Assembly (NCBI GenBank): GCA_964459135.1
Contig: CAYWLI010000001.1
Span: 2,506 to 66,505, forward strand
Direction: 5' to 3'
From: an uncultured Thermodesulfobacteriota bacterium
Lineage (GTDB): Bacteria; Desulfobacterota; B13-G15; RBG-16-54-18
Length of the DNA: 64,000 nucleotides
Of the stretch, positions 12,859 to 28,915 are shown piece by piece; within the stretch, counting starts at the first letter, position 1, and every line of letters begins with the position of its first letter. The notes beneath the pieces are model-generated. The model worked only from the letters and a program-made list of their open reading frames with translations, was not told where the DNA came from and did no database searches. The position numbers and the translations under genes were made by a program.

Positions 12859-13713
12859 TTATCCAGTGGTAGTACCTTGGCGTTGTCTGTAATCCTTAAT
12901 GTAGCGCTGGGCAAACCGGTCGCGGCCGAGGATAAGATCGGTGGCCAAGATCGTTGATCGCACCTGTGCTGCATCCACAGTGGGACAGGTTACTCCCGCT
13001 TCGATAGCCAGGGATAAAAAGGCCTTGTTGACCAGCGGCCTATCCGGCAACCCGAAGGATATATTGCTTGCGCCCAATGTCTGATTCACACCGAGCTGCT
13101 CCTTGACCGTGCGGATGGCTTGAAGCGTAACGAACCCGGCCCGATCGTCCGAACCCACCGCCAGGGCGAGACAATCGATGATGATGTCCTCTCGGGGAAT
13201 CCCCAGAGACGCTGCTCGCTCGATGATTTTATTCGCGACCTCCAGCCGCTTTGCAGGCTCCTTCGGGATCCCGCTATCATCGAGGGCCAGCCCGATAACG
13301 GCGGTCCCATACTCCTTTACCAGCGGCAACACCTCATTGAGGGATCGCTCTTCGCCGGAGACTGAATTCACGACGGGTTTCCCCTCGTATACCGTGAGGG
13401 CCTCTTTAAGGGCCGCGGGATTGTTGATGTCGATACACAGGGGTACATCCACCGCAGCCATGATCGTTTCAATGGCTTGAGGAAGAACGGAGATTTCATC
13501 CACATCAGGGACCACGACATTGACATCCAGGATGTCCGCTCCGGCTTCGACCTGGGCTATCGCCTCCTGACGCACCACATCAAAATCACCTGCCTTTAAT
13601 GCCGCTGCCAGCTTCTTCTTGCCGGTCGGGTTGATGCGCTCGCCGATCAGGATGGTCGGTCCGCTGTCACTGATGACGACCTCTCTTTGTGCGCTTGATA
13701 CCTTGGTTTCCAT
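12859..13713 (-). CDS. Pterin-binding methyltransferase (methylcorrinoid:tetrahydrofolate methyltransferase, MT II, MtvA/AcsE-like)
   Basis: 284 aa TIM-barrel pterin-binding (DHPS-like) pattern: ILIGERINPTGKKK...ADILDVN...NSVSGEE. Confidence 0.7.
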   Translation of the reverse strand: METKVSSAQREVVISDSGPTILIGERINPTGKKKLAAALKAGDFDVVRQEAIAQVEAGADILDVNVVVPDVDEISVLPQAIETIMAAVDVPLCIDINNPAALKEALTVYEGKPVVNSVSGEERSLNEVLPLVKEYGTAVIGLALDDSGIPKEPAKRLEVANKIIERAASLGIPREDIIIDCLALAVGSDDRAGFVTLQAIRTVKEQLGVNQTLGASNISFGLPDRPLVNKAFLSLAIEAGVTCPTVDAAQVRSTILATDLILGRDRFAQRYIKDYRQRQGTTTG

Positions 13714-13775
13714 AAGAAGGGTTACTCTCCTTTAAATTTGTTAGGCTTTCGGTATTCGATCTCCACGCTTGCTGC

Positions 13776-15119
13776 TCAACGGTACACACCATATTCCTTT
13801 GAGAAGTCGATCATGGCCTTGACATTTTCCGCCCTGGACCCCTGTATGCCCGCACCGGATGAAAGGATAAATCCGCCATCCTTTCCCGCCGTGTCGATGA
13901 GCTTTTTACAATAGTCTTTCACATCGTCGGGCGTACCGGTGCAGAGCAGATCCAAAGGCACATTTCCTGCGATACAGGATACCGTGCCGACAGTCTCCTT
14001 TGCCCGGGCCATGTCCGTCGTGTCGAACCACCAGACGGTCTTACCTTTCGGAATATCACAAATGGCTTCAAGACGCTGGTTATAGCCTCCTTCCGCAAAT
14101 AGCTGTGGGACTATCCCCGCATCGATGAGACCGATGATGAGCTTTCGCAGAGACGGCCAATAAAAGGTCTTAAACTGTTCATCAGACATAAATCCATCGG
14201 CCCCCTTGTGAAGTGGGATGAAGGGGATGATATGACCGGCGGCTTTGCATGATGCCACACCGCATTTAATCATAAAAGGGGTTATCCTCTCACAGGCCTC
14301 GAGAAGCTCATCCGGGTGTCGAAACATATCCATCAATACGCCTCGAGTGCCCCTGAGGCTGTCCCCGATAACATCAAAAGGCGCCTTGGTAAGTCCAGCT
14401 GCAGAGGAGGGGTATCCCTTCCCCATGATCGATGCGCTGACCTGGCCCACAGCAGAGAGCCATGCGGTGACTTCATCGCCCCCATCACTCAGCTTCTTGA
14501 AGGCCGCTTTCACATCCTCCATGCCAAAAGGCATCAGTGCCGGCGGCACCATGGGAATCTCGTGTACGGGTGGTAATAAGGGCATTTTTGCTAAGGGAGT
14601 TAAGGCACCAAAGATCCGTGGGAAATAGACAGTGAGAAAAAATCCGGTGGGGTCATCGATCAATGCCTGGTACTCCTCTGCCTTCATATACTCACCCTCG
14701 ACAAACTGGTACTCCTGATGCTCTCGCAGGCCATGGCCTGCCCATTGGTATAGGTTGAAATCCAGCATGTCGAGCGCTTTGCCAGGAACAATAGTCCGAG
14801 GGGTACTAAAGGTATCAGGGGCAAAATCGACATGAAACTTTTCCCAGGCATAGGCCAGTTTGTCATAGTCATACATGGCGTCATGCCAGCTAATGCCGGC
14901 GTATTCGATGGGGAAATGACCTGCTGAGGGGGATATCGGAATGCGCGCGGGGGTCTTCTTCAGTTGAATCGCATCTTTTATGAGGGTCACCCGGTCCTTA
15001 TAAGCCGCTTCAGCCTCCGAGTTCTCGAAGGTGATATTTTTGCCTGAAAGCCAGACGTGAAACTGTTGTTCCTGCCTTTCCTCAGCATCAGGAGATGCGT
15101 CCATCCATCTCTCCCTCAT
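13776..15119 (-). CDS. Uroporphyrinogen-decarboxylase (URO-D)-family methyltransferase (substrate:corrinoid MT I, MtvB/MtaA-like) with an N-terminal extension
   Basis: 447 aa with UroD/MtaA-like C-terminal features. Its operon position lies between the corrinoid protein and the pterin methyltransferase. Confidence 0.65.
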   Translation of the reverse strand: MRERWMDASPDAEERQEQQFHVWLSGKNITFENSEAEAAYKDRVTLIKDAIQLKKTPARIPISPSAGHFPIEYAGISWHDAMYDYDKLAYAWEKFHVDFAPDTFSTPRTIVPGKALDMLDFNLYQWAGHGLREHQEYQFVEGEYMKAEEYQALIDDPTGFFLTVYFPRIFGALTPLAKMPLLPPVHEIPMVPPALMPFGMEDVKAAFKKLSDGGDEVTAWLSAVGQVSASIMGKGYPSSAAGLTKAPFDVIGDSLRGTRGVLMDMFRHPDELLEACERITPFMIKCGVASCKAAGHIIPFIPLHKGADGFMSDEQFKTFYWPSLRKLIIGLIDAGIVPQLFAEGGYNQRLEAICDIPKGKTVWWFDTTDMARAKETVGTVSCIAGNVPLDLLCTGTPDDVKDYCKKLIDTAGKDGGFILSSGAGIQGSRAENVKAMIDFSKEYGVYR

Positions 15120-15123
15120 ATCA

Positions 15124-15786
15124 TTACGCTCCTATCCACTTCTTCGCCAGGGCAATGCCCTCCATGGCATCCTTGCCAAAGGCATCGGCACCGGCATGCT
15201 CCCGCACCTTTTCGCTCATCTGAGCACCCCCGATCATGATCTTGACCGTGTCACGCAATCCGGCTTCCTCGATGGCCTGAACCGTACGCTTCATGGAATC
15301 ATAGGCAAGGGTGAGAAGACCACTCATGCCCACGACCTGGGGCTGGAACGCCTTGATCTCGTCCACGAATGTGCCCGGGGGAACGTCAATCCCGATATCG
15401 CGCACCTCAAAGCCGTTCACCTCGAGGAGAAAGGTGACGATATCCTTGCCGATGTCATGAATGTCCCCTTCCACGGTCCCCATGAGTACTTTCCCCCGTT
15501 TCCCCGAAGTCGCTTCACCGTGCAGCTTTGGTTTGACCATCTCAGAGATCTGCTTCAACATATCACCGGCCAGCATCAGCTCGGGAAGAAAATAGGTCTC
15601 CTCCTCAAAACGCTTCCCCACTATTTCCATGGCCTTGGAGCAATCATCCAGGATCTTCAGAGGGTCTTCATCACCATCGAGCAAGACCCTGGCTATTGCG
15701 AGGGCCTCTTGCTCCCTCATGGTACTCATGGCATCGACCAAGCTATCAGACATGCTCTGTATCTCCTTCCGCCCCCTTTCCCCCAC
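15124..15786 (-). CDS. Corrinoid (cobalamin-binding) protein, MtvC/MtaC-like
   Basis: 220 aa with the B12-binding DxHxxG motif (GDIHDIGKDIV) preceded by a B12-binding_2 cap helix region. Confidence 0.85.
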   Translation of the reverse strand: MGERGRKEIQSMSDSLVDAMSTMREQEALAIARVLLDGDEDPLKILDDCSKAMEIVGKRFEEETYFLPELMLAGDMLKQISEMVKPKLHGEATSGKRGKVLMGTVEGDIHDIGKDIVTFLLEVNGFEVRDIGIDVPPGTFVDEIKAFQPQVVGMSGLLTLAYDSMKRTVQAIEEAGLRDTVKIMIGGAQMSEKVREHAGADAFGKDAMEGIALAKKWIGA

Positions 15787-15990: not shown

Positions 15991-16023
15991 AAAAGAGGTG
16001 GTACCAGGCACTCGGTACCACCT
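15988..16023 (-). terminator. Rho-independent terminator of the CoA-ligase gene
   Basis: Perfect 10-bp stem aggtggtacc / ggtaccacct with an 8-nt loop, followed on the minus strand by a run of 7 U. Confidence 0.7.
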
Positions 16024-16065
16024 CCAGTTTGTATGTAGAGAATATCTACCCTTATTCGTGATGCC

Positions 16066-17724
16066 TTATCCAGTTGCCTGGAGCTTCTTCTCTATGTCTT
16101 GGCGGAGGGACCGTTTATCCACTTTTTCCGCACCGGTATGGGGCATAGTCTCGATAAATTCGATCCGCTCCGGAAGCTGAAGCACAGAGGCCTTCTCCCC
16201 TTTCAAGAAAGAGATGATTTCCTCAAAGGATAGCTTGGCCCCGGCTTTGGGCTGGACATAGGCACAGACCCGTTCGCCCATAAGCGGATCGGGCATCGGG
16301 ATGACGGCCACTGCCGCGACATCTGGGTGACGGGTGATGAGGCTCTCGATTTGCGTGGCGCTGATACTCTCACCACCCCGGTTGATCATCTCCTTGATGC
16401 GGCCGGTGAGTGTGATGAATCCCTTTTCATTGATCTTGGCCACGTCTCCGGTCCTGAAGAACCCGTCCTGAGTAAATACCGCCTTGTTTTCCTCTGGGTT
16501 GTTGTAATAGCCCGTAAATACACCGGGGCCCTTCAGTACCAATTCCCCCTCTTTATGGGTGGGGAGTTCATTACCCTCTGGATCGATGACCTTATACGTG
16601 TCATACGGGCAGGTGGGTCTCCCCACGGTTGTACAGATGGTCTCTAAACTATCAATGGTGCGCGTGATGGTCGTCATTCCTTCTGTTGCGCCATATCCGT
16701 TGTAAAACTTCATGTGCAGTTTTTCCGTGACCTCCTTGACCAGATCGGGGTGGCTTGCCCCCCCTGCGCTGTGCATCTTTTTCAAGGTGCTCAAATCATG
16801 CTTATTAATATCCTTATATTGGAGCATCTTTTGCGCCAGTGTGGGGACCCAGATGATCGAGGTAATTTTCTCCTTTTCAATGGTCTCACATATCTCCTTG
16901 TCGTCTGTAGAATCCAGGAATACGACCTTTCCACAGGTAAAAATACTCCCGAGGAAACCCTTGGAGAATGTCAAATCATGCCCTATCGGTCCCGCAAGGA
17001 GGGTAATATCCTCGCTGGTCTGGTCCCACGACTTGGAGCAATATTCGGTGCCGGTAATGAGACTATTGTGTGTGCGGGGGACAATCTTGGGTGCTCCGGT
17101 CGTCCCTCCGGTCGGTCCCATATGGGCCACCTGCATGGGATCCGGCCGCCTGCCGGCGAGCCGAGCCAGGTTGTCCTCGGTCAATGCAGACTCTTCGATC
17201 AGTCTTTCGAGGCTGGCAAAGGGCCGCTGATCCCCTTCCCCCCGGACAGTAATGACATGCGTAACGTCAGGATGCTCCTTCAGGACATCTGTAATAATGG
17301 GGATGTAGTCTGTTTTTTTGTATCGGGAGGCGACAATCCAGGATGTGGCCCCGGTAAGGCTAATGAGGTGGTTTATTTCAAACTGCCGGTATCGGTCGAT
17401 CAACAATACGGGGATGGCCCCGATCTTTTGAACGGCAAAATAGGCAAAAACGAATTCGTTCCAGTTCGGAAGCTGAACCAGGACCCGGTCCAAGGGCTGG
17501 ATGCCCAAATCCATCAGGCCGATGGCCAGCTTATTCGTCTTTTCCCGAGTCTCCCCATAGGTCAGGCGCGTCTGACGATCCACAAAGGCCTCTTTGTCAG
17601 GGTGGATATCCGCAGCCCTGTCGAGGATATCTCCGAATGTTAGTCCAGACCACCATCGAAGTGCGTTATACTTTTCTGCATCTTCTTTTTTATAGGGGAT
17701 AACTCCTTCCAGAAGCCTTACCAT
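16066..17724 (-). CDS. AMP-dependent aryl/acyl-CoA ligase (benzoate-/dihydroxybenzoate-AMP ligase-like)
   Basis: 552 aa with an AMP-binding core (GPTGGTTGAPKIVPRTHNS) and a C-terminal adenylation subdomain. Confidence 0.8.
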   Translation of the reverse strand: MVRLLEGVIPYKKEDAEKYNALRWWSGLTFGDILDRAADIHPDKEAFVDRQTRLTYGETREKTNKLAIGLMDLGIQPLDRVLVQLPNWNEFVFAYFAVQKIGAIPVLLIDRYRQFEINHLISLTGATSWIVASRYKKTDYIPIITDVLKEHPDVTHVITVRGEGDQRPFASLERLIEESALTEDNLARLAGRRPDPMQVAHMGPTGGTTGAPKIVPRTHNSLITGTEYCSKSWDQTSEDITLLAGPIGHDLTFSKGFLGSIFTCGKVVFLDSTDDKEICETIEKEKITSIIWVPTLAQKMLQYKDINKHDLSTLKKMHSAGGASHPDLVKEVTEKLHMKFYNGYGATEGMTTITRTIDSLETICTTVGRPTCPYDTYKVIDPEGNELPTHKEGELVLKGPGVFTGYYNNPEENKAVFTQDGFFRTGDVAKINEKGFITLTGRIKEMINRGGESISATQIESLITRHPDVAAVAVIPMPDPLMGERVCAYVQPKAGAKLSFEEIISFLKGEKASVLQLPERIEFIETMPHTGAEKVDKRSLRQDIEKKLQATG

Positions 17725-17812: not shown

Positions 17813-19117
17813 CTAATAGCTGATAAAACTCGGTAAAAAGGTAGCAATCTGCGGGAAAATCAACATGATAACCGTAACAATAATCAATGCCACAAGAAAG
17901 GGAAAAATCCCCTTAAAGATATGTTCAAGGGGTACATCTGGAGCAATCCCCTTAATGACAAACACGTTGACCCCTACCGGCGGGGTGAGCACCCCCATCT
18001 CCCCTACGAGCACGATGATGACCCCAAACCAGATCGGGTCAAAGCCGAGCTCCTGAACGAGTGGGAAAAAGATGGGGACGGTAAGCACGATGAGGGCCAT
18101 GGAATCCATAAAGAAGCCGCCTATAAAATAGATGAAGACAATGACTATCATGACAGCCATCGGGGGTATGGGTAGCCCCCCGAGCCACTCAGCCAGGACA
18201 AAGGGTATCCTCGATACCGCCATGAAGTGACCAAAGATAGTAGCCCCGGCCATAATGAAAAGCACCATACACGCGGTTCGCACACCTTCCTTGCCGGCAT
18301 CAACAAATGTCCGCCACGTCACCTGTCGCCGGGCCAAGCCGATGAACAAGGCGCCGCCGGCACCGATTGCTCCGGCCTGCGTGGGGCTGAACCAGCCGAG
18401 AAAGAGCCCTCCTATGGCCAGAAGAAAGAGAATGAGGGCTTCGATTATGCCTGCCGTAGATCGCAGCTTCTCTTTGAAGCTGACGGGGACTCCGGGGGGA
18501 CCGATGGCGGGGTTGCGCCAGCACAGCAAGGCCACGGTTGCGGCAAAAAAGATGCTCAGGATGATCCCCGGCAAGACGCCGGCGATGAAGAGCTTACCGA
18601 TGGATTCCTCAGTCAAATACCCGTAGACGATGAGGACAGTGCTCGGCGGGATAAGGATACCCAGGGTGCCCGCAGCAGCAACGGTACCGGTAGCGAGGGT
18701 GTCATCGTACTTATACTTCTTCATTTCAGGAAGCGCTATCTGGCCCATGGTCGCTGCCGTTGCCGTGCTCGAGCCGCAAATAGCGCCAAAGCCGGCACAG
18801 GCAAAGACAGTAGCCATGGTCAGGCCCCCCCGGAACTGCCCGATCCAGGCATAGGTCGTCTTATAAAGCCTTTTGCTGATCCCCGAAGCAAAGGCAAATG
18901 TCCCCATGAGGATAAACAGGGGGATAACGCTCAAGGGATAATTGATAAAATCTTCGAAGATATCGCGGCCGATAAGACCGAGTGCCGCTCCTGGGGTAAC
19001 CAAATAACCAAACCCAACAACTCCGACCAAGGCCATGGCAAAGGCAACCGGCAATCTGAGCAAAAAGAGTAAGATGAGAAGGGCAATGCCGATGATGCCT
19101 ACAGTAACTGAGTCCAT
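17813..19117 (-). CDS. dctM: TRAP transporter large permease DctM
   Basis: 434 aa polytopic protein of the DctM family, co-operonic with the DctQ and DctP homologues. Confidence 0.85.
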   Translation of the reverse strand: MDSVTVGIIGIALLILLFLLRLPVAFAMALVGVVGFGYLVTPGAALGLIGRDIFEDFINYPLSVIPLFILMGTFAFASGISKRLYKTTYAWIGQFRGGLTMATVFACAGFGAICGSSTATAATMGQIALPEMKKYKYDDTLATGTVAAAGTLGILIPPSTVLIVYGYLTEESIGKLFIAGVLPGIILSIFFAATVALLCWRNPAIGPPGVPVSFKEKLRSTAGIIEALILFLLAIGGLFLGWFSPTQAGAIGAGGALFIGLARRQVTWRTFVDAGKEGVRTACMVLFIMAGATIFGHFMAVSRIPFVLAEWLGGLPIPPMAVMIVIVFIYFIGGFFMDSMALIVLTVPIFFPLVQELGFDPIWFGVIIVLVGEMGVLTPPVGVNVFVIKGIAPDVPLEHIFKGIFPFLVALIIVTVIMLIFPQIATFLPSFISY

Positions 19118-19119
19118 CT

Positions 19120-19608
19120 CTATACCTTCCTCTTTTTGAGTGATTTAAGAAATTCCAAGAAAAATACCATACAGACGGGAATACAGCCAAGGGCAATCCC
19201 ATAGGCGAAAGGATAATAGGGTATGTGGATAGTGGCGCTATAGTCCCCTGAGGTTTGCATTAAATAACCAAGCGCAATGAGGCGCCACACAATCACCATG
19301 AAGAGCCCTAAGCCGAGAAGCAGAATAACGCTATTGATAACTGATCCGAGACGCCGTGGCAGCAGCTTGACAAAGAATTCTACTTTGATATGCCGACCTA
19401 GAATCAGCGTCATGCTGCAACCAAAGGCAATTGCCACGGTCTGGGCAAGCATCACGATGTCAAGGGATCCCGGGAGAGGCCACCGAAAGAGCTTAGCCCC
19501 CACAACATCGACGCAGGTCACAACCATCATCACCAGCAACCCAAGAAACGCGAGCCTCTCAAACCAGTCACTTAACCGGCGATTATACCTTTCTAATGTA
19601 TCTAACAC
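19120..19608 (-). CDS. dctQ: TRAP transporter small permease DctQ
   Basis: 162 aa 4-TM protein immediately upstream of dctM. Confidence 0.75.
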   Translation of the reverse strand: MLDTLERYNRRLSDWFERLAFLGLLVMMVVTCVDVVGAKLFRWPLPGSLDIVMLAQTVAIAFGCSMTLILGRHIKVEFFVKLLPRRLGSVINSVILLLGLGLFMVIVWRLIALGYLMQTSGDYSATIHIPYYPFAYGIALGCIPVCMVFFLEFLKSLKKRKV

Positions 19609-21131: not shown

Positions 21132-21965
21132 TCATCCTTCGTCAGTTGTCCTCTCATAAATCTTTTCAATATCAGCTCCGAAGGCGTAAGAAACACTCTT
21201 GGCACACTCTACCACTTTGTAACCATAGTGCTCAACCAAACTTTCATCAAAGACTCCAACGACAACTAGACATGCAACCACTTTCCCATTGTGGCCAAAT
21301 ACCGGGGCTGCAACGGAATTATATCGAGGATTTATTTCGCCCATATCCTGTGCAAACCCCACCTGGCGACACCTGTCAAGCTCTTCCCTCAATCGTTCCA
21401 TATTCACTGGTGAGTTAACACCATCACCGTAAAACCAGAGCTTTTCTGACGCGAGAATCTGTTCCAGTTCATCGTGTGGGAGAAACGCCAAGATGGCCTT
21501 GCCGTGAGATCTATAGGTCAGGGGAAATCTATACCCCAGTCGTATCGTTATGTTTACACCGCTGTAGGCTTCATGTTTGGCCATCACAAAGAGGTGGCTA
21601 TCGACGATCAACCCAAAGAATGCGGTGCTTTGTGTTTCTTTGGCAAGAGACTCAAGGAAAGGAGCTACCTTCTCCTGATTATAGATATTATCCAAAACTC
21701 TCCCTGACAGAAACACAAGAGCCGGTCCCAAAGAGTACGTTTTTGTCTGAGGGTCTTTTTCGACAAAACCAAAATTCTTTAACGTATTCAAGATTGAATA
21801 TCCCTTGCTTTTATGAATACCTACCTGGAGGCAGATATCCGTCAGCCTCATTTTGAACGTGGGGCTTTTCGCTAAACAAATGAGGATCTGTGCCCCTTGC
21901 TGTACCGCTGGAACCAGAGGGGTGTATCCTGTGTTGACCTCCTTGTTTTGCTTTATATCTAGCAT
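21132..21965 (-). CDS. IclR-family transcriptional regulator
   Basis: 277 aa with an N-terminal HTH (RLTDICLQVGIHKSKGYSILNTLKNFGFV) and a C-terminal IclR effector domain. Confidence 0.8.
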   Translation of the reverse strand: MLDIKQNKEVNTGYTPLVPAVQQGAQILICLAKSPTFKMRLTDICLQVGIHKSKGYSILNTLKNFGFVEKDPQTKTYSLGPALVFLSGRVLDNIYNQEKVAPFLESLAKETQSTAFFGLIVDSHLFVMAKHEAYSGVNITIRLGYRFPLTYRSHGKAILAFLPHDELEQILASEKLWFYGDGVNSPVNMERLREELDRCRQVGFAQDMGEINPRYNSVAAPVFGHNGKVVACLVVVGVFDESLVEHYGYKVVECAKSVSYAFGADIEKIYERTTDEG

Positions 21966-22078
21966 GATGTTAGATGGCTGTCTATCCCCTTAGGTTATGA
22001 GGTTTAAACCTCCACCCTCGACCGATCTTCACCCCTCCCGCTTTACTCATGTCCCAACGCTTCGTCAAAGGAGAGGCC

Positions 22079-22843
22079 CTAAAATACAAACAGGTCAATA
22101 CCGCCCGTCATATTCATCACCGCACCAGTCATGTACCGGGCTTCGTCCGATACCACATAGGCAACGGCATCGGCGATTTCCTGGGGGTCAGCAGGCCTGC
22201 CAATGGCTGTCCTCTTTTCAATCCTTTTCTGGTACTCTTCCGGGATCGGCTCAAAATAGGCCTCCGTATAGGCTATGCCGACCAGAACACAATTTGCAGT
22301 GATATTGTATCGAGCCCCCTCCAATGCCGTTGACTTTGCCAGACCGATCAGTCCTGCTTTGGCAGCACCGTAGCTTGTCTGTCCATAACCACCCAGAACA
22401 CCTGCGGCAGAGGTCATGTTGACAATACGGCCCCACTTATTGGCACGCATATCTTCCCATGCCTCCTTGATACAATAAAAGGCAGAATTCAGGCAGAGTT
22501 TGACCTCTTCATCCCATTCTTCTATGGTGGTCTTGGCAATGGTCACCATATGGCGCATTTGGGCAGCATTGTTCACGAGGATATTCACCGGCCCAAGCTC
22601 GCCTTTTATGGCTGCATAGGCCTTCTGTACATCTGCATAATCCCTCCCATTCATTTTGACCGCCATCGATTTGCGGCCCAGTGCCTGTATCTCTTCGGCA
22701 ACCGCTTTGACTCCATCCATGTGGCTAAAGCCGGTCACCACGACATCCGCCCCGTGTCGTGCCAACGTAAGGGCAATGGCCTTTCCAATACCCTTCGGCA
22801 TTGAAGCTCCTGTCACCAATGCGATCTTACCTTCTAACGACAT
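22079..22843 (-). CDS. SDR-family oxidoreductase (3-oxoacyl/3-hydroxyacyl reductase-like)
   Basis: 254 aa with the Rossmann motif TGASMPKGIGKA and a YxxxK catalytic region (YGAAKAG). Confidence 0.85.
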   Translation of the reverse strand: MSLEGKIALVTGASMPKGIGKAIALTLARHGADVVVTGFSHMDGVKAVAEEIQALGRKSMAVKMNGRDYADVQKAYAAIKGELGPVNILVNNAAQMRHMVTIAKTTIEEWDEEVKLCLNSAFYCIKEAWEDMRANKWGRIVNMTSAAGVLGGYGQTSYGAAKAGLIGLAKSTALEGARYNITANCVLVGIAYTEAYFEPIPEEYQKRIEKRTAIGRPADPQEIADAVAYVVSDEARYMTGAVMNMTGGIDLFVF

Positions 22844-22898
22844 ACAGTATCCTCCTCATGTGCTGATTGCTGTATAGATCCCACCGCTTACCTGCCCC

Positions 22899-24098
22899 TT
22901 ACCCCACCTTTACCACAAGGGAGGCGCCTGTATCTCCCGCTGCGCAGCCGGCCCACAAACCATAGCCGCCGCCAAGGAGTACCAACTCCTCCACCAACTC
23001 TGCGATGAGCCTGCCCGCTGTGGGACTCTGGGGATGCCCAAAGATCATGGAGCTTCCATAGTTGTTCATCCACATCACGTCAACGCCCATCTGTTTGGAC
23101 ATGTAAATATCATTTACCGCGAAGGGGTTGTGGGTCTTGACCGCCTTCATGTCTTTAATCGTGAGACCGGCGTTTTTCAGCGCCATCTGCGCAGCCGGCA
23201 CCGGGGCCTGAGCCATATAGGACTTTTTTGCCCTGGCAAAACCATATGACATGATCTGAATCTCGGTCTTGGGATCAGTGCTCAATTCCTTGGCCTTCTC
23301 CCGAGTAGTGACGATAAAACCACAGTTCCCGTCCGCAGGATGGGTCTGTGCACCGAAGGTCAAGACGCCGTTCGGTTCTACCGGCTTGAGTTTTGCCAAT
23401 CCTTCCGCCGTAGAGGGGGTGATGCCCTCATCCTCTTCGACCATGATGGTCTGCTTTCTCGATACCCGTACCTCGACTGGGAACATATACCGCTTCTGAA
23501 AGGCCCGGTCATCCGCCAGGGAATCCACATATTGCTCATACCGTCGCAGGGCGACCGCATCGCATTCTTCTCTGGTAATGTCGGCCTCCGCAGCCACATT
23601 TTCCGCCGTCCGTGTCATGCTCATGCCCCCCCAGGGGTCTTCGAAATTGTCCATCATCCAGTTTTCCGATTCCACCTCTCCCCCCGGACCCAACGGCTGA
23701 GCCCATACGGTGTGCGGACCGTTGGAGCAGCGGTCCGACATGAGTGCAAATGCCGTTTCATACGTGCCGACATCAATATTCACCGCCGCAAGGTGGATAC
23801 ATGTCGCTGAAGTGGTGCAGGCCTGATTTACCATCAGCCCGGGCAGATTCTTCTTGCCGTCCACCAGCATGCCAGCGGCCCAGTTGTGGCTGTGGAACAT
23901 GTAGTGTTGGGACACCGTGATCCCATAGTATAGGTATTCAACCACCGTGGGATCTAAATCGCGGCTCGAAAACCAGCGTCTCGCCGTGTTCGCACCCAAT
24001 TCAATGGCATTCTCATTGGCCAAGCTCCCCTGCCAGCGGCTAAAGGGACTTGAATAATAACCTCCATAGGGTATATAAGCCTTCGTCAACATATCCAT
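22899..24098 (-). CDS. Thiolase-family acyl-CoA acetyl/acyltransferase
   Basis: 399 aa with nucleophile-Cys region NQACTTSA, GHP motif FGHPQSPTAG and C-terminal CAAGDTG. Confidence 0.75.
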   Translation of the reverse strand: MDMLTKAYIPYGGYYSSPFSRWQGSLANENAIELGANTARRWFSSRDLDPTVVEYLYYGITVSQHYMFHSHNWAAGMLVDGKKNLPGLMVNQACTTSATCIHLAAVNIDVGTYETAFALMSDRCSNGPHTVWAQPLGPGGEVESENWMMDNFEDPWGGMSMTRTAENVAAEADITREECDAVALRRYEQYVDSLADDRAFQKRYMFPVEVRVSRKQTIMVEEDEGITPSTAEGLAKLKPVEPNGVLTFGAQTHPADGNCGFIVTTREKAKELSTDPKTEIQIMSYGFARAKKSYMAQAPVPAAQMALKNAGLTIKDMKAVKTHNPFAVNDIYMSKQMGVDVMWMNNYGSSMIFGHPQSPTAGRLIAELVEELVLLGGGYGLWAGCAAGDTGASLVVKVG

Positions 24099-24274
24099 CT
24101 TCCTCCATGTATGATTTTAATTATCAGTAAAGGGTAGCGCGGATCCCCTGCGTCAAGCATCAATGTGTATTTCCCACCCTTTTGTTGTTCTATATACAGA
24201 AAAATATTCTATGTATAGAATTGCTATTTCGTAACATCTTTCAAAACACGTGTCAAGAGAAAAATGGTGCACGA

Positions 24275-24576: not shown

Positions 24577-26406
24577 GTGATTATGGGTAAGACACAATCA
24601 TTCCAGATCGAGTTTCAACCCGTGGGCCGGAGAGATCGATTCCCGGCGGAACTGTCCATCCTCGAGTGCGCACGCCGATCAGGCATTGACCTGGTCAGTC
24701 TCTGCGGAGGTGCAGGTACTTGCGGCAAATGCAAGGTACAGATAGTCTCCGGGGAGGTATCCGAACCCTGCCAGAAAGAGAAGGAAGCACTTTCAGCTGA
24801 GGAGATCTCGCAAGGATACCGTCTCGCCTGCCAAACATATGCGCAAACGGATCTCGTGTTAACCGTACCGGCAGAATCTTTGAGCGCCCCGCAACGACTC
24901 CAGGTGGAAGGTCTCGAGACACCTGTCACCCCTGACCCTACCATTCAGACCTATGATGTATCACTGCCGGCCCCTTCCTTGTCCGACCTCAGGGGGGATG
25001 ATGAACGACTTCTTGAGGCGCTGGAGCAGCAACACGGTGCTGTATGTGAAAGCATCGATGAAGAGGTGTTGCGAACCTTTTCGCCCGCGTTGAGATCCCT
25101 CACGTGGGAGGCATCTGTCTCGGTCCGCGACGCTGAGGTAATTGCTGTGGGTCCTGTGGGCGGTCACAGCCTCGGCATGGCCGTTGACCTGGGGACAACC
25201 AAGATCGCCGGTTATCTCGTCGATCTGGAAACCGCTCGTACGCTCTCCGCCAAGGGGATTATGAACCCCCAGATTTCATACGGAGAGGATGTCATCGCGA
25301 GGATGGCCCGCGCCCAGAGGTCTCCTGAAGACGCGGCAACCCTTCAAGAAAAGGTTGTGGAAGCCCTTGCCACGCTTTCCGAGGAACTGTGCCACGAGGC
25401 AACTGATGCCCGACCCGAAGAGATCAAAGAGCTCGTCGTGGTGGGCAACACGGCAATGCACCACCTCCTGCTCAGGCTTCCGGTGGAGCAGTTGGCCAGG
25501 GCGCCGCATGTCCCGGCAATCAGTCGAGCCCTGGATATCAAGGCACGCGATCTGGGTTTTTCAGTCGCCCCAGGTGCCTCTGTACACTTACTGCCCAATA
25601 TTGCCGGTTTTGTTGGGGGCGATCACGTGGCCATGCTATTGGCAGTTAATGCCTGGGAGGCTGAGGGCCCGATGCTCGCTATAGACATCGGGACCAATAC
25701 GGAGATATCCCTGGTGATGCATGGAGAGATCAGCAGCGTGTCGTGCGCGTCAGGACCTGCCTTTGAGGGCGCCCATATCTCCTGTGGCATGCGCGCCGCG
25801 CCGGGTGCTATCGAGCATATGCTGATTACAGGTCAAGAGATTCAATACCATACAATCCATGGCACAGAGCCGGTGGGTATCTGCGGATCAGGCATCTTTG
25901 ACACCCTTGCGCAACTCTTTCTCAATGGCATAATCGACAAAGGCGGGAGGATCAGGGCGGATCATCCTCGCGTTCGGGAAAATCAAAAGGGCAGAGAGTT
26001 TGTGATCGTCAGTGAAGAAGAAAGGAACGGCGGTTCGGCGATCACGATCACGCAAGCGGATGTACGTGAGCTGCAACTGGCACAGGCGGCCATTCGGAGC
26101 GGTATTCAGATACTCTTACGAGACAAGGGGCTTGCGGATGAAGACCTTGACGAGATCATCATCGCGGGAGCCTTTGGAAGCTATCTGAATATTTCAAGCG
26201 CTATCGCCATCGGGATGTTTCCAGCTATTCCCGTAAGTCGCTTTCGCCAGGTTGGAAATGCAGCGGGGATGGGGGCAAAGATCGCCCTCGTCTCCAGAGA
26301 AAAGCGGGAAGCAGTTCAGAAAGGTGTCCGAGCAATTCGCTATATCGAACTTGCGGTGGCCCCCGATTTCAATAAGACCTTTACGCAGGCCCTTTCCCTC
26401 GGATAA
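24577..26406 (+). CDS. RamA-type reductive activase of corrinoid proteins (N-terminal 2Fe-2S ferredoxin + ASKHA ATPase domain)
   Basis: 609 aa with the N-terminal plant-type ferredoxin motif LCGGAGTCGKCKV and a long ASKHA/COG3894-like body. Confidence 0.75.
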   Translation: MIMGKTQSFQIEFQPVGRRDRFPAELSILECARRSGIDLVSLCGGAGTCGKCKVQIVSGEVSEPCQKEKEALSAEEISQGYRLACQTYAQTDLVLTVPAESLSAPQRLQVEGLETPVTPDPTIQTYDVSLPAPSLSDLRGDDERLLEALEQQHGAVCESIDEEVLRTFSPALRSLTWEASVSVRDAEVIAVGPVGGHSLGMAVDLGTTKIAGYLVDLETARTLSAKGIMNPQISYGEDVIARMARAQRSPEDAATLQEKVVEALATLSEELCHEATDARPEEIKELVVVGNTAMHHLLLRLPVEQLARAPHVPAISRALDIKARDLGFSVAPGASVHLLPNIAGFVGGDHVAMLLAVNAWEAEGPMLAIDIGTNTEISLVMHGEISSVSCASGPAFEGAHISCGMRAAPGAIEHMLITGQEIQYHTIHGTEPVGICGSGIFDTLAQLFLNGIIDKGGRIRADHPRVRENQKGREFVIVSEEERNGGSAITITQADVRELQLAQAAIRSGIQILLRDKGLADEDLDEIIIAGAFGSYLNISSAIAIGMFPAIPVSRFRQVGNAAGMGAKIALVSREKREAVQKGVRAIRYIELAVAPDFNKTFTQALSLG

Positions 26407-26472: not shown

Positions 26473-27375
26473 ATGGATAATTCCATCGATACCGTCACCA
26501 AGGCCTTTGAACATCAGTCTCCGCGCCGTCCGCCGAGGGGGGAACTGTGGTTGGGCACAGAGCTGCTGAAGAAGGCGAACCTTGAAGACACCCTGGAAGG
26601 CCATCTCGCGCTGATAAAGCGTTTAGGCCAAGACATCATGTGTCTTCCCCTATCCAGTGAGAGTAAGATGAACGAGGCCCTTGGCTACCGATACTTCGAT
26701 TTACAAGGGCTTGCGGAGGCCTCAAGGATTAATGATCTCTTTGTCATGGCGCTCATCGATGGCCCCTTTCAGAGGCTTGCTGAAAAAAGGGGGTTGACGA
26801 ACGTCCTCACCGGATGGAGACGGGAACGGTATGAATTTAAAAAGGCGTATGAGCAAGAGCGGGCAGCGGTAGATGTTCTGATAAGGAGGAGTCTTGAGCT
26901 GTTAGTTGGTGCTGTTGTGGTAGCGGATGATGTAGCTGGAGAACGCGCTCCGTTTATTGGCCCTAACGATCTTCAAGAGCTTTGTTCCCTCTTTTATACC
27001 CAGGCGGTCTCCGAAATTCATAGCGGGCATGCGTACGCCCTGCTTCATTCCTGCGGCAATATCACGAGGTTAATCCCTCATCTTGTTTCATATGGCTTCG
27101 ACGGCCTGGCAGCCATTCAGCATCGGATCAATGACCTTATTGCTTTAAAAAAACTCTACGGATCCACTCTTACTTTTATGGCCGGGATCGAGGCAGAGGT
27201 GTTAGAGGCAGAGGAACTCTCTTCGTCCGACAGGAAGGAATATAAAAAGATTATCCGGGCCCTTGCCCCGGATGGTGGTTTTGTCATCTGCTCATCCAGC
27301 GGTCTGTATGCCGATGATTTTCTTGAAAGGGTACAAGAGCTTTATCGAATCGCCGACACACTATACACCGGATAA
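26473..27375 (+). CDS. URO-D-family (MtaA-like) methyltransferase, short form
   Basis: 300 aa with a UroD/MtaA-like C-terminal half including an LLHSCGN zinc-site-like motif. Confidence 0.55.
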   Translation: MDNSIDTVTKAFEHQSPRRPPRGELWLGTELLKKANLEDTLEGHLALIKRLGQDIMCLPLSSESKMNEALGYRYFDLQGLAEASRINDLFVMALIDGPFQRLAEKRGLTNVLTGWRRERYEFKKAYEQERAAVDVLIRRSLELLVGAVVVADDVAGERAPFIGPNDLQELCSLFYTQAVSEIHSGHAYALLHSCGNITRLIPHLVSYGFDGLAAIQHRINDLIALKKLYGSTLTFMAGIEAEVLEAEELSSSDRKEYKKIIRALAPDGGFVICSSSGLYADDFLERVQELYRIADTLYTG

Positions 27376-27409
27376 AACATGCCAAAGGATCAAGGGTGTC
27401 CTCAAACAA

Positions 27410-28063
27410 TTAAACGCTCCCCTCCATGATCTGTTGACAAAGACGCACTCCTTTCATGGCATCGTTCGTCCAGTAATCCGCGTCTAACTCCTTACACAAA
27501 AACTCAGTAACCTGACCGCCGATAAGATATGCACGAGGTGCGAACTCCTCGGGAATATTGTCTTTTAAGAGCGCAATGGTCTCTTGCATGGACTTGTAAG
27601 CTGCAGAGATGAGACAGGAGAGCCCGACGATGTCGGGCTTGAACTCATGAATTGCCGCAAGGAATTTACTCGGCGGCACATCGACCCCGATATCATGAAC
27701 CGCGAACCCGTGCACACGAACAAGCTCTTTAAAGATATCCTTGCCGATGAAGTGGATATCCCCCTCAACCGTGCCGAGGATAATGCTGCCAATATTCCCG
27801 TTCGTGATCTTGCTTTCAAGAAGGGGAAAGATCTGTTGTCCGACCTGGCGCATAATCTCACCGGCCATGATGAGACCGGCTATAAAGTAGCGCCCTTGTT
27901 CGTAGTACTCCCCAACTTGGATCATGCCCTTATGGCACAGGTCGATGATAGTCAGAGGGTCAACACCATCGGCTATGTGCTGCTGAACCAAGTTCAATAC
28001 CGCCTCCTCTTGCAGTTCAGCCATCAAGGTGCTGAGTTCCGCTTGGTTGTCTGTTACAGGCAT
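27410..28063 (-). CDS. Corrinoid (cobalamin-binding) protein, second copy
   Basis: 217 aa with the DxHxxG motif GDIHFIGKDIF and an N-terminal cap region. It lies downstream of, and co-oriented with, the GntR gene. Confidence 0.85.
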   Translation of the reverse strand: MPVTDNQAELSTLMAELQEEAVLNLVQQHIADGVDPLTIIDLCHKGMIQVGEYYEQGRYFIAGLIMAGEIMRQVGQQIFPLLESKITNGNIGSIILGTVEGDIHFIGKDIFKELVRVHGFAVHDIGVDVPPSKFLAAIHEFKPDIVGLSCLISAAYKSMQETIALLKDNIPEEFAPRAYLIGGQVTEFLCKELDADYWTNDAMKGVRLCQQIMEGSV

Positions 28064-28090
28064 ATAACCATCACCTTTTGAATGTCTGCA

Positions 28091-28915
28091 CTAGGTCTTG
28101 CTACTGATACCCACCGTGGTAGTAAATCTCAGACGATCCCCCCGGCATATGAACCGTCCCCAACTGACGGGTCTGTCCTCAAAATCGTAAAAGATATGTT
28201 CAAGGCGGAATGCGGGCTGCATTTCAATGGTGTTGAGTATATCCGCTTCTTCCTTCGCGAGCACCGCCGCCTCGATGACCAGTTCCCCCCGTTTGAGCGT
28301 TGTTTCCCCATCTCCGACAAACAGGCCTTGCAGGGAGGTAATTCCCAGTTCAGCCTCAACAATCGGGCGGAGGGGATCGTATATCAGTTGTTCCTTGTGA
28401 TACAGAATGGGATCACCATCCCGAAACAAGACTCGCCTGATGAGGATAGTCCGCTCACCCACACCTATGGCCAATTTATTTGCCGTCCTCTCATCGGCCT
28501 TAACGATGAGTGTTTCCAGAATTTTTACCTTCGTTCGCTCCTTGTCCTTGAATATGTTGTGAAATTCTTCCAGACTAAAGGTTACCTTTCCCAAATCAGG
28601 GGCTTTAACATAGGTCCCACTTCCCTGAATGGTGTTGACAATCCCTTGATCCAATAAAATATTGATGGAGCGGCGGACCGTCATGGGGCTGACCTGATAC
28701 CGCTTGCACAGCTCTGATTCAGACGGCAGACGACTGCCGGGGAGGTAGATGCCCTGTGCGATCTGATCCTTGAGAATATTGACGAGCTGAACATATGCCG
28801 GTTCAAATGTTTGGCGATCTATAGTTGTTTGATCGGTCATTATCGTTTTGGGATTGTATATTCGCTTATTTAATAATAATTGGTATATATAACTTAGGAA
28901 CTTACTAGATGTCAA
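28091..28915 (-). CDS. GntR-family (HutC/UTRA subfamily) transcriptional regulator
   Basis: 274 aa with an N-terminal wHTH (LPSESELCKRYQVSPMTVRRSINILLDQGIV) and a C-terminal UTRA-like domain. Confidence 0.8.
   Translation of the reverse strand: MTSSKFLSYIYQLLLNKRIYNPKTIMTDQTTIDRQTFEPAYVQLVNILKDQIAQGIYLPGSRLPSESELCKRYQVSPMTVRRSINILLDQGIVNTIQGSGTYVKAPDLGKVTFSLEEFHNIFKDKERTKVKILETLIVKADERTANKLAIGVGERTILIRRVLFRDGDPILYHKEQLIYDPLRPIVEAELGITSLQGLFVGDGETTLKRGELVIEAAVLAKEEADILNTIEMQPAFRLEHIFYDFEDRPVSWGRFICRGDRLRFTTTVGISSKT

Follow-up and report, generated by a model that had tools for sequence, protein, structure and literature searches.

The 16-kb stretch at 12859-28915 raises two questions: which methyl donor its corrinoid-dependent methyltransferases act on, and whether the transporter, ligase and accessory genes lying among them serve the same pathway. 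The window (the whole stretch of DNA analysed, 64 kb) was covered with ORF calls, Pfam and NCBIfam, and the gene content found at 12859-28915 matches the initial annotation, with coordinates exact or off by a few codons. Many independent contigs, from metagenomes and MAGs, have the same gene sets; the arrangement is thus not due to chance. The word "island" chosen earlier does not suit the cluster: its GC content is ordinary, dnaA is about 15 kb away, and synteny holds in a relative with 88% identity. We favour, with moderate confidence, the joint reading that the region encodes a complete four-component corrinoid (vitamin-B12)-dependent methyl-transfer system of the Mtv/Mto type and that its substrate is a methoxylated aromatic carboxylate. 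The host is an uncultured sulfate-reducer-like deltaproteobacterium, presumably capable of sulfate reduction; no dsr genes were found within the 64-kb window.

Components of the methyl-transfer core

12859..13713, minus strand: MT II, methyl-corrinoid:tetrahydrofolate methyltransferase of the pterin-binding MeTr/MtvA type (Pterin_bind, E 4.6e-28)
13776..15119, minus strand: MT I, substrate:corrinoid methyltransferase, a long UroD-superfamily protein of the MtvB/MtoB/CdmB clade (447 aa)
15124..15786, minus strand: CP1, corrinoid protein of the MT operon (Pfam B12-binding_2 and B12-binding)
24577..26406, plus strand: RACo/AE-type ATP-dependent reductive activase of corrinoid proteins (609 aa; N-terminal 2Fe-2S domain and ASKHA domain)

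The operon of corrinoid protein, MT I and pterin-binding MT II described earlier is present at 15786-12859 (ORFs, Pfam, NCBIfam), and the 2Fe-2S/ASKHA activase, placed about 9 kb off, lies 8.8 kb from it. CP1 carries the motif GDIHDIGK (D108-x-H110-x-x-G113) and probably has its start at ATG 15753 and a length of 209 aa, as indicated by a ribosome-binding site and a separate gene call. MT II is 34% identical to MtvA, 36% to the bacterial MT II MtaA and 36% to CdmA. The activase has the four diagnostic Pfam domains (Fer2, RACo_linker, Raco_middle and RACo_C_ter), is 30% identical to the activating enzyme (AE) of A. dehalogenans and scores 439 bits on the AcsV model, but just 128 bits on the archaeal RamA model, for which the cut-off is 500 (NCBIfam). 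With MtvB as the best characterised match of MT I, a pterin protein that matches MtvA and bacterial MT IIs best, and an activase of the RACo/AE type, the core agrees with the Mtv-type corrinoid methyltransferase system proposed in the initial annotation.

Two identities that had been named as fatal to that proposal were rejected. MT I is not HemE, scoring 21 bits against the 303-bit cut-off of the hemE model (NCBIfam), and the gene at 12859 is not FolP: it scores 21 bits against 163 on the dihydropteroate synthase model and 280 against 259 on the methyl-tetrahydrofolate:corrinoid methyltransferase model PRK07535 (NCBIfam).

Phylogenetic position of MT I

Among characterised enzymes, MT I is closest to the vanillate enzyme MtvB (33% over 420 aa, E 1.5e-69), followed by MtoB (28-29%) and CdmB (26%). 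Among solved structures, CdmB (9rui, E 5e-36) is nearest to it in sequence, and its AF2 model (pLDDT 88.7) has a UroD/MtaA-like barrel. The N-terminal extension of about 100 residues reported earlier is correct relative to URO-D, because the Pfam match is limited to residues 200-443 and begins at profile position 102 (ending at 346). The protein is nevertheless not atypical, as had been claimed: full-length family members measure 410-455 aa, CdmB having a comparable 429 aa and MtoB a size of 47-48 kDa (PMC8630106), and the N-terminal half of MT I is collinear with MtvB and CdmB in the alignment.

The comparison with characterised enzymes suggested at the outset places MT I with the long-MT I clade of MtvB, MtoB and CdmB (98-99% NJ bootstrap). 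Within it, MT I belongs to a large, exclusively environmental clade of its own (98% bootstrap), which has no characterised member and stands beside MtvB, MtoB and CdmB. The phylogeny and the sequence therefore leave the substrate class unfixed, and the sister group of the MT I clade includes CdmB, which is chloromethane-specific and has no activity on methoxy-aromatics (PMC13222342).

The closest known systems differ from the locus in instructive ways. MtvABC, the vanillate O-demethylase of Moorella thermoacetica, is likewise organised as three genes for an MT I, a corrinoid protein and a pterin MT II, and MtvB shares with MT I the absence of the HxC zinc motif. MT I, in contrast, stands in its separate environmental clade and is longer at the N-terminus by about 35 residues, the host is not an acetogen but an uncultured deltaproteobacterium, and the cluster adds TRAP uptake, CoA ligation, an extra short methyltransferase and a GntR-linked second corrinoid protein. 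MtoABCD, which supports methoxydotrophy in Methermicoccus shengliensis and Archaeoglobus fulgidus, also pairs a 22-kDa corrinoid protein with a long MT I of 47-48 kDa, and has a RACo-like activase and adjoining transporter and regulator genes (PMC8630106). MtoA, however, is MtrH-type and acts on H4MPT, whereas MT II here is of the pterin-binding MeTr/MtvA type, and the Mto locus has MFS/efflux transporters where the window has TRAP and a CoA ligase. In the chloromethane dehalogenase/methyltransferase CdmBCA of Acetobacterium dehalogenans, the MT I is of the same long UroD-superfamily clade and aligns collinearly, its N-terminal half included; CP1 shares 45% identity with CdmC, and MT II resembles CdmA as given above.

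The same architecture might act on another methyl donor, either a TRAP-imported methylthio or sulfonium carboxylate (3-methylmercaptopropionate or DMSP) or a haloalkane as in CdmBCA. We regard this as unlikely; it would leave the corrinoid chemistry unchanged and give it a different ecological meaning. Tetrahydrofolate is the methyl acceptor when marine sulfate reducers demethylate DMSP, which speaks for such a donor; we know of no genes for this tetrahydrofolate-linked demethylation in them. The identity of MT I to characterised enzymes is just 26-33%, its clade is its own, and the UroD superfamily includes S-methyl, Cl-methyl and O-methyl MT I enzymes whose specificities are scattered over the tree (PMC13222342, PMC7374477). 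The best match of MT I is nevertheless the vanillate enzyme, and its 26% identity to CdmB is far under the minimum of 40% within the CdmB-like set of that paper (PMC13222342). Moreover, gaseous chloromethane has no need of TRAP uptake or of CoA ligation, and the context of carboxylate transporter and CoA ligase would make no sense for it.

Uptake and CoA-activation genes and their recurrence

12240..12764, plus strand: XRE-cupin regulator (HTH_3 and Cupin_2), convergent with MT II
15994..16025, minus strand: intrinsic terminator 3' of the ligase gene (13-bp stem with 7 GC pairs, then a T run)
16066..17724, minus strand: AMP-forming acyl/aryl-CoA ligase, 552 aa (Pfam AMP-binding and AMP-binding_C)
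17813-19117, minus strand: DctM (Pfam DctM)
19120-19608, minus strand: DctQ (Pfam DctQ)
19766-20965, minus strand: DctP (Pfam DctP; likely start 20905)
21132..21965, minus strand: IclR-family regulator (HTH_IclR and IclR_C)
22079..22843, minus strand: SDR oxidoreductase of the 3-oxoacyl/3-hydroxyacyl type (adh_short_C2, E 1.7e-50)
22899..24098, minus strand: thiolase (Thiolase_N/C)

DctP has a lipoprotein signal peptide with the lipobox LPSC, and its closest structures (4n6d, 4pgn, 4nap, 5i5p and 7nr2) are ones that we take to be binders of aromatic acids. The nearest solved structures of the ligase are the aryl-acid-adenylating salicylate-AMP and 2,3-DHB-AMP ligases (E 1e-93). At the position of DhbE Asn235, the residue that binds the ortho-hydroxyl, the ligase has an Asp (GH-D-L), which is kept in the L102 and L032 orthologues. 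With this Asp in place of the ortho-hydroxyl-binding Asn, the ligase may act on something other than a simple hydroxybenzoate; the missing Asn also counts for a methyl donor other than a methoxy-aromatic. The thiolase retains an intact Cys/His/Cys set (Cys94, GHPQS and Cys385).

Gene context was compared for relatives of MT I at 67% identity or more. The closest loci (L102/L103, MT I 88%) show full synteny, including TRAP, ligase, IclR, SDR and thiolase. L006 (79%) has TRAP genes within the CP-MT I operon itself, although these are more distant (29-45%). L009 (67%) carries an orthologous TRAP system (64-81%), IclR, a 4-hydroxybenzoyl-CoA-reductase-like alpha/beta/gamma trio and a DhbE-like ligase, followed by MT I and the corrinoid protein; the trio scores 744 bits on TIGR03194, its beta subunit being matched in a single stretch across the Cys-rich insertion, and the ligase carries His-Asn. 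TRAP, ligase and Mo-bisPGD enzymes are found in L032 and L104, and a ligase with a Liv-type ABC transporter in L105. An IclR gene also adjoins MT I or TRAP in L009, L032 and L102, and the position of the XRE-cupin gene is conserved in L002, L004 and L102. The local regulators are proposed to be these two together with the GntR protein that accompanies CP2.

It could be argued that the 16-kb catabolic unit is over-read, and that TRAP, ligase, IclR, SDR and thiolase serve an independent, beta-oxidation-type degradation of an unrelated carboxylic acid. The strong terminator splits the TRAP-ligase unit from the CP1-MT I-MT II unit, which has its own promoter-like region upstream of CP1; the synteny of SDR and thiolase is confined to close relatives (L001 and L102) and missing from more distant loci, and the ligases adjoining MT I vary among loci (27-36% identity). 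Still, a carboxylate transporter and/or an AMP-forming ligase directly adjoins MT I in the window and in L006, L009, L010, L032, L102, L104 and L105, and the L006 TRAP genes are inserted inside the operon. Considering that non-orthologous ligases and two transporter classes recur, functional coupling is favoured over inherited adjacency, and we hold independent neighbours to be improbable. The coupling to organic-acid uptake and CoA activation postulated earlier thus recurs in relatives. This recurring context and the 4-hydroxybenzoyl-CoA-reductase-like neighbour in one relative support a methoxylated aromatic acid, and the latter, with the DhbE-like aryl ligases, tells against other donors. 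The locus holds a new member of a known enzyme type, and the adjoining genes are for the import of an organic acid, probably an aromatic one, and its conversion to a CoA thioester.

Proposed pathway

The adjacent TRAP transporter would bring in the substrate, most probably a methoxylated aromatic carboxylate, and MT I would transfer the methyl group of this substrate to Co(I)-CP1. MT II would then pass the methyl group of CH3-Co(III)-CP1 to tetrahydrofolate; both this direction of flow and the subsequent oxidation of the methyl group via the C1-tetrahydrofolate pathway are postulated, and no C1-pathway genes were found within the 64-kb window. Corrinoid protein that has been oxidised to Co(II) would be reduced back to Co(I) by RACo, at the expense of ATP and with an electron of low potential. 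The demethylated phenolic acid could be converted by the 552-aa ligase to its CoA thioester for further anaerobic degradation. SDR and thiolase may take part in product breakdown; no enoyl-CoA hydratase was found within the 64-kb window.

A second module with a compact UroD-like protein

26473..27375, plus strand: UroD300, compact MtaA-like methyltransferase co-transcribed with the activase (300 aa)
27410..28063, minus strand: CP2, second corrinoid protein (B12-binding_2 and B12-binding), convergent with the UroD300 gene
28091..28915, minus strand: GntR/HutC-type regulator with UTRA effector domain (Pfam GntR and UTRA), directly upstream of CP2; probable start at 28840
29171..30310, minus strand: MFS transporter (Pfam MFS_1), upstream of GntR-CP2

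The GntR-linked corrinoid protein facing a 300-aa UroD-like gene was recovered as annotated, with the DxHxxG motif of CP2 present as GDIHFIGK. UroD300 is neither truncated nor atypical, as had been supposed: its family of about 364 homologues is conserved at 297-308 aa, has 100% tree support and is restricted to deltaproteobacterial MAGs. It scores 22.6 bits on URO-D, slightly below the 23.9-bit cut-off (Pfam). Across 64 loci its neighbours are MT I, RACo, MT II and CP2, and it is physically embedded in CP-MT I-(RACo)-MT II operons. The module holds most of the novelty of the locus, with UroD300 as a previously undescribed, putative helper methyltransferase.

The AF2 model of UroD300 (pLDDT 86.8) is best matched in fold by the methylcobamide:coenzyme M methyltransferase MtaA (4ay7/4ay8, TM 0.73, E 5e-12), and its LHSCGN, containing the HxCG (H192-S-C194-G) invariant in the family, aligns with LHICGN of this thiol methyltransferase. 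Unlike in MtaA/MtbA, the third Cys ligand is not conserved, and UroD300 scores 34 bits against the 400-bit cut-off of the NCBIfam MtaA model; to our knowledge, coenzyme M synthesis is not known in bacteria of the host's kind. Sequence similarity to OdmB (E 6e-8) and to an unnamed A. dehalogenans paralogue (E 1e-14) is significant, if weak. The phylogeny, run for this protein as well, gives it a family of its own that groups weakly (64%, NJ) with OdmB/VdmB, the short zinc-containing O-demethylase MT I enzymes of Acetobacterium dehalogenans and Desulfitobacterium. Like them, it is a short UroD-type barrel (300-336 aa), with HxCG as in VdmB; it is, however, about 30 residues shorter, 24-29% identical over partial lengths and typically paired with the activase or GntR-CP2.

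This second pair might be non-catabolic, UroD300 being a methyl-corrinoid:thiol/sulfide methyltransferase or else the activase's partner in a de-alkylating repair, and CP2 a corrinoid co-sensor reporting methylation or redox state to GntR. We give this little weight, although the MtaA-like motif and fold point that way, as do L029, where RACo and the UroD300 that follows it have no further MT gene within 10 kb, and the GntR gene found directly upstream of, and co-transcribed with, CP2-type genes in 13 of 13 other loci. We know of no enzyme assigned to sulfide methylation coupled to O-demethylation. The coupled process is itself a known physiology (PMC7374477) and counts on the same side. On the other hand, VdmB, MecE and CmuA have HxCG as well although they are MT I enzymes, the third Cys ligand varies, small molecules are the usual UTRA ligands, and the grouping in the tree is with short MT I enzymes. 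In 12 loci the operon order is CP-MT I-UroD300-(RACo)-MT II, with UroD300 directly after an MT I of the long type, which recalls the pairing of MtoB1 with MtoB2 (PMC8630106). The most likely reading of UroD300 is that the locus has in it a second MT I, short and of the zinc-type VdmB/OdmB kind, with CP2 and/or CP1 as its presumed partner.

The mtpCAP-msrH locus of Methanosarcina, which serves methylmercaptopropionate, likewise combines a corrinoid protein and an MtaA-like protein with an MFS transporter and a regulator (PMC7374477), a resemblance that adds to the case for another methyl donor. The MFS transporter possibly belongs to the second module: its orthologues (71-80%) adjoin UroD300 or GntR in L034, L040 and L041, and in L006, L008, L022, L030, L049 and L056 a GntR gene is transcribed divergently from a CP-MT I operon.

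Gene organization and transcription units

ORF listing and profile searches recovered all the genes named in the initial annotation, arranged as follows.

12859-13713, minus strand: pterin-binding methyltransferase (MT II), identified by profile search
13776-15119, minus strand: 447-aa URO-D-superfamily methyltransferase (MT I), identified by profile search
15124-15786, minus strand: corrinoid protein CP1; the likeliest start is the ATG at 15753, with a GGAGG-type ribosome-binding site ahead of it
16066-17724, minus strand: AMP-forming ligase, 552 aa
17813-20965, minus strand: dctMQP (TRAP transporter); the DctP start is probably at 20905, with a lipoprotein signal peptide
21132-24098, minus strand: IclR regulator, SDR and thiolase
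24577-26406, plus strand: RACo-type reductive activase, 609 aa
26473-27375, plus strand: UroD-like protein of 300 aa (UroD300), 66 bases after the activase gene and converging on CP2
27410-28063, minus strand: second corrinoid protein (CP2), 27 bases downstream of the GntR/UTRA gene
28091-28915, minus strand: GntR/UTRA regulator

A terminator (13-bp stem and T run; 16025-15994, minus strand) follows the stop codon of the ligase gene, and the region upstream of CP1 is AT-rich and promoter-like; CP1, MT I and MT II thus form their own unit, apart from the TRAP-ligase unit. Searches of the intergenic regions yielded perfect or near-perfect palindromes that are candidate operator sites: ATTCTATGTATAGAAT between the thiolase and RACo genes (24206-24221), GAGGTTTAAACCTC upstream of IclR (21999-22012) and GTATATAC upstream of GntR (29080-29087). 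A single HutC-type GTNTANAC site was found upstream of GntR (29080) and another upstream of IclR (22002), with none in the regions searched ahead of CP1 or RACo, too few to tie GntR to the methyltransferase operon. An Rfam scan of the window detected no cobalamin riboswitch or other RNA family, and a tRNA scan found no tRNA. Two ORFs in the window, 106-834 (242 aa) and 32360-33223 (287 aa), had no match in Pfam.

Methyltransferase II, corrinoid proteins and activase

MT II scored 280 bits on the methyl-tetrahydrofolate:corrinoid methyltransferase model PRK07535, above the curated cut-off of 259 bits, and is 34% identical to MtvA; the methanol MT II proteins of bacteria and CdmA, from the chloromethane (Cdm) system of A. 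dehalogenans, each share 36% identity with it. The alternative raised in the initial annotation, that the gene at 12859 encodes FolP, was rejected, as the DHPS model TIGR01496 gave 21 bits against a cut-off of 162.6 bits. CP1 and CP2 both combine a cap domain with a Rossmann B12 domain (Pfam B12-binding_2 and B12-binding) and carry the DxHxxG histidine-ligand motif (GDIHDIGK and GDIHFIGK, respectively); their identities to CdmC are 45% and 34%. The activase has an N-terminal 2Fe-2S domain (Fer2), followed by RACo_linker, Raco_middle and RACo_C_ter, all above cut-offs, as expected of an ATP-dependent reductive activase (COG3894), and shares 30% identity with the activating enzyme (AE) of A. dehalogenans. 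It had been described as RamA-like; its match to the archaeal RamA model TIGR04270 is confined to the ASKHA part (128 bits versus 500), whereas RamA combines an ASKHA domain with C-terminal ferredoxin-type clusters. The protein is of the bacterial RACo/AcsV type, and 'RACo/AE-type' is the more exact name.

MT I belongs to the long UroD-superfamily methyltransferases

Reference sequences were taken from Supplementary Data 3 of PMC13222342. The best BLASTP match of MT I among them is MtvB, from the Moorella O-demethylase system (33% identity over 420 residues, E 1.5e-69), with residues 37-446 of MT I aligned to residues 4-389 of MtvB. MtoB, from the O-demethylase system of Methermicoccus and Archaeoglobus, follows with 28-29% identity (E 1e-47). 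Identity to CdmB is only 26% over 393 aa (BLASTP, E 2e-39; 27-31% in HMMER alignment blocks), and an orthologue of the Cdm enzyme is clearly excluded. In this reference-set comparison, similarity to the short enzymes OdmB and VdmB, or to UroD, was not significant. By sequence, the closest solved relative of MT I is CdmB (PDB 9rui, 429 aa, E 5e-36), and the alignment is collinear, N-terminal half included. CdmB is a chloromethane:corrinoid methyltransferase described in 2026; MtvB and MtoB, which are O-demethylases, belong to the same clade, and the CdmB barrel has its first three strands separated by insertions that form the dimer interface and the substrate channel (PMC13222342).

Neighbour-joining trees with simple distances, in which several references ended at residue 400 because the source supplement cut them there, grouped MtvB, MtoB, CdmB and the window MT I in a long UroD-superfamily MT I clade with 98-99% bootstrap. 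Within it, MT I and its environmental relatives formed a separate clade (98% in a reduced data set), and in this rough tree no characterised enzyme fell inside that clade, MtvB, MtoB and CdmB all lying outside. The family is large, with a score obtained for over 6,700 close homologues; of the clusters formed at 50% identity, 3,293 matched at E ≤ 1e-3 and 380 at the stricter E ≤ 1e-30. MT I stands for a very large uncharacterised environmental clade.

The N-terminal extension of about 100 aa that had been considered atypical is real when measured against the Pfam URO-D profile, yet proteins of this clade normally have it. Full-length family members have 410-455 aa, MtoB1 and MtoB2 are proteins of 48 and 47 kDa (PMC8630106), and no more than about 35 residues at the N terminus set the MT I subclade apart. 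The confident AlphaFold model of MT I (pLDDT 88.7, pTM 0.89) has a barrel like those of UroD and MtaA, to which further elements are added (TM about 0.56 over the query length). Foldseek retrieved only UroD and MtaA from a PDB copy that ran up to April 2026 and was without 9rui, so that the link to CdmB came from the sequence search. The initial annotation had also considered that the UroD-like proteins could be HemE. This proved not to be the case for either of them: MT I reached 21 bits on TIGR01464 against a cut-off of 303 bits, UroD300 gave no hemE hit, and in the trees Bacillus subtilis UroD is well removed from either protein.

These comparisons establish what the components of the methyltransferase system are. 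The window system has every architectural element of the Mtv and Mto systems, namely, a long MT I, a corrinoid protein, a pterin-binding MT II and an activase, and departs from them only in that its MT I is not nested among the characterised O-demethylases.

A conserved chromosomal cluster near the probable replication origin

The GyrB sequences closest to that of the window come from Deltaproteobacteria bacterium RBG_13_52_11 (88% identity) and a Desulfobacterales MAG (87%), after which identity drops to about 66%. None of the genomes scanned is identical to the window; the relatives were all MAGs, and the closest MT I (82% identity) came from an uncultured Desulfobacteraceae bin. The genes gyrB, dnaN, dnaA and gyrA lie together at 40565-48437 on the minus strand; between 42 and 46 kb the GC content is down to 0.42, and cumulative GC skew reaches its minimum at 46-48 kb. 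This region is the probable chromosomal replication origin. The methyltransferase cluster lies about 15 kb from it, adjoins histidine-biosynthesis genes and has an ordinary GC content.

Exact or near-exact copies of the locus were found in several JGI metagenomes. In the metagenome loci L102 and L103 (88% MT I identity), the order thiolase-SDR-IclR-DctPQM-ligase-CP-MT I-MT II-XRE-Liv ABC is wholly syntenic with the window, apart from an extra PaaK-like ligase, and the same 80-kb contig encodes a 93%-identical GyrB. Ordinary composition, synteny in relatives and a place near dnaA do not agree with the earlier description of the genes as an island; this is a conserved chromosomal cluster. The window holds a complete Mtv-type system of an uncultured deltaproteobacterial lineage, chromosomally fixed near the replication origin. 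Elsewhere in the window, a B12-binding radical SAM protein with a DUF4070 domain is encoded at 57197-58546, a position unrelated to the methyltransferase cluster.

Gene neighbourhoods and the predicted substrate

The methoxyl groups of lignin-derived aromatics are a large pool of methyl groups in anoxic sediments, and to our knowledge, the enzymes of O-demethylation have been characterised only in a few acetogens and archaea. Across related loci, the MT I clade repeatedly adjoins carboxylate transporters, aryl-CoA ligases and putative enzymes of reductive dehydroxylation. Two classes of transporter stand beside MT I, as do no fewer than three types of AMP-forming ligase (27-65% identical to one another). 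In L006 (79%; Deltaproteobacteria RBG_13_52_11), dctPQM lies between the corrinoid protein and MT I, preceded by RACo, CP2 and GntR, and followed by a second CP-MT I pair and MT II. L105 (69%) has MT I with a ligase and a Liv-type ABC transporter. It is chiefly this recurrence that argues for a carboxylic acid as the substrate, with its demethylated product then activated with CoA.

The nature of the product is suggested by L009 (67%), where an orthologous TRAP transporter (64-81% identity) and IclR are followed by three genes, a DhbE-like aryl-acid adenylating enzyme (with His-Asn), MT I and a corrinoid protein. These three genes (4311-8041), between IclR and the ligase and upstream of MT I, best match the beta, gamma and alpha subunits of 4-hydroxybenzoyl-CoA reductase (4-HBCR), although all three score below the curated cut-offs (alpha, 744 bits versus 995; beta, 233 versus 405). 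The beta subunit aligns to the 4-HBCR model in one stretch across a Cys-rich insertion (Cys116/121/137/145/154/159), an insertion that splits its matches to XdhB-type models. The relatives of the window ligase are salicylate- and DHB-AMP ligases (E 1e-93). Together, a 4-HBCR-like neighbour and aryl-acid-adenylating relatives of the ligase point to an aromatic, phenolic product. We consider the closest DctP structures to belong to an aromatic-acid-binding clade of substrate-binding proteins, an argument of little weight. Caveats to this reading are that the catalytically intact thiolase and the SDR are conserved among close relatives only, and that no hydratase gene was found in the window. Loci L032 and L104 (68%) combine MT I with TRAP genes, ligases and molybdopterin oxidoreductases. 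The latter are bis-PGD enzymes paired with 4Fe-4S ferredoxins (6977-9961 in L032 and 4434-6987 in L104) that adjoin the genes for MT I/CP and for TRAP/ligase; they might work on the phenolic product in the manner of a transhydroxylase or a dehydroxylase.

Considering this context, the substrate of MT I is predicted, with somewhat better than even confidence, to be a methoxylated aromatic acid. In such a route, RACo would spend ATP to reduce the Co(II) corrinoid protein to Co(I), MT I would transfer the methyl group of the substrate to Co(I)-CP1, and MT II would pass it on to tetrahydrofolate; the demethylated acid would be activated with CoA by the ligase and then enter anaerobic aromatic degradation. 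From gene context, and by analogy with the Mtv, Mto and Cdm systems, we infer that the TRAP transporter and the ligase would be coupled to demethylation of a substrate of this class, with oxidation of methyl-tetrahydrofolate and sulfate respiration. If the O-demethylase reading is true, the MT I clade marks anaerobic turnover of methoxy-aromatics by respiring bacteria, as opposed to acetogens and methanogens.

That the methyl donor belongs to another class seems unlikely, yet two observations bear on it. At residues 249-251, the window ligase has GH-D-L where DhbE-type enzymes have H-N-Y/F, an Asp thus replacing the hydroxyl-binding Asn235, and this Asp is kept in the orthologues of L102 (93%) and L032 (65%). 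Adenylation domains that activate amino acids typically carry Asp here, and its conservation is a hint that the substrate may bear a cationic or amino group. In addition, CdmB shows no conversion of methoxy-aromatics (PMC13222342), and given that this sister enzyme is a chloromethane dehalogenase, the O-demethylase assignment needs biochemical proof.

The neighbouring catabolic genes could instead be unrelated to the methyltransferase operon, which has its own transcription unit; set against the recurrence of these genes beside MT I in other loci, we give this only a small probability. A wider set at 2439-11948 may belong to the same catabolic neighbourhood: a Liv-type ABC operon, in which an AMP-binding gene of ACSL-like type (683 aa) separates the ATPase from the permease genes, followed by a DUF169 gene and a 500-aa acyl-CoA ligase. 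The Liv-ABC/ACSL/DUF169/ligase set recurs beside corrinoid methyltransferase systems or UroD300 in L031, L045, L046, L053, L090, L102 and L105. The L033 locus (77%) has neither transporter nor ligase, and at 8384-11344 its CP-MT I genes are preceded, in the place of MT II, by a PF02574 S-methyltransferase gene of homocysteine-binding type, which suggests that the methyl group goes to a thiol acceptor in that organism.

UroD300 and the GntR-CP2 pair

UroD300 had been regarded as truncated. Its approximately 364 homologues, all from deltaproteobacterial MAGs or metagenomes, are nearly all 297-308 aa long, and this conservation of length across the family, with a confident model (pLDDT 86.8), rules out a truncated pseudogene. 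H192-S-C194-G is invariant in the family, Q216-H217-R218 nearly so, and a distal Cys (273 or 275) is present in most members, though not all. Structurally, UroD300 comes closest to MtaA, a zinc enzyme (TM 0.73, E 5e-12), whose LHICGN aligns with LHSCGN of UroD300; on the NCBIfam MtaA model, UroD300 scored 34 bits versus 400. The HxCG motif is also carried by the MT I enzymes VdmB, MecE and CmuA. Among the reference sequences, UroD300 was most similar to unnamed paralogues from A. dehalogenans (E 1e-14) and to OdmB (E 6e-8, 24% identity). In the neighbour-joining trees, the family is monophyletic (100%), and its grouping with the short OdmB/VdmB enzymes is weak (64% bootstrap).

We compared 64 metagenome loci with a family member, counting neighbours where the flank was available. 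Immediately upstream of UroD300 lay a same-strand long MT I (12 loci), an activase (7) or MT II (2), and immediately downstream a convergent CP2 (9), MT II (5) or a CP1-type protein (3). Two strings are typical, CP-MT I-UroD300-(RACo)-MT II and RACo-UroD300 with a convergent CP2-GntR; L029 has RACo and UroD300 as a pair on their own. Most economically, UroD300 is read as a further MT I, short and of the zinc type, which would use the same corrinoid proteins as the long MT I, in the way of MtoB1 and MtoB2. A GntR gene directly precedes CP2-type corrinoid proteins in 13 of 13 loci, one of them actinobacterial, and in the loci examined it was never directly ahead of CP1-type proteins. A non-catabolic role of the second pair, UroD300 and CP2, has a low probability.

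A more speculative view, to which we assign a similarly low likelihood as a whole, is that the conserved quartet RACo, UroD300, CP2 and GntR constitutes an accessory module, not described before, that serves the corrinoid methyltransferase systems of uncultured Desulfobacterota. UroD300 could then move a methyl group from methyl-corrinoid to sulfide or a thiol or, alternatively, de-alkylate mis-alkylated corrinoid proteins alongside the activase, while CP2 could report its own methylation or redox state to the co-transcribed GntR. A UroD300 directed at thiols or sulfide would, if true, be the missing enzyme for methanethiol formation in anaerobic O-demethylation. As far as the literature found shows, the UroD300 family and the obligatory GntR-CP2 pairing are undescribed. 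The regulation of such corrinoid systems has been called largely unexplored (PMC13222342), and the family and this strict pairing offer testable leads on their regulation and maintenance. In L006, a DUF1638 gene (3200-3883; a domain of unknown function) occupies the position of UroD300 downstream of GntR-CP2.
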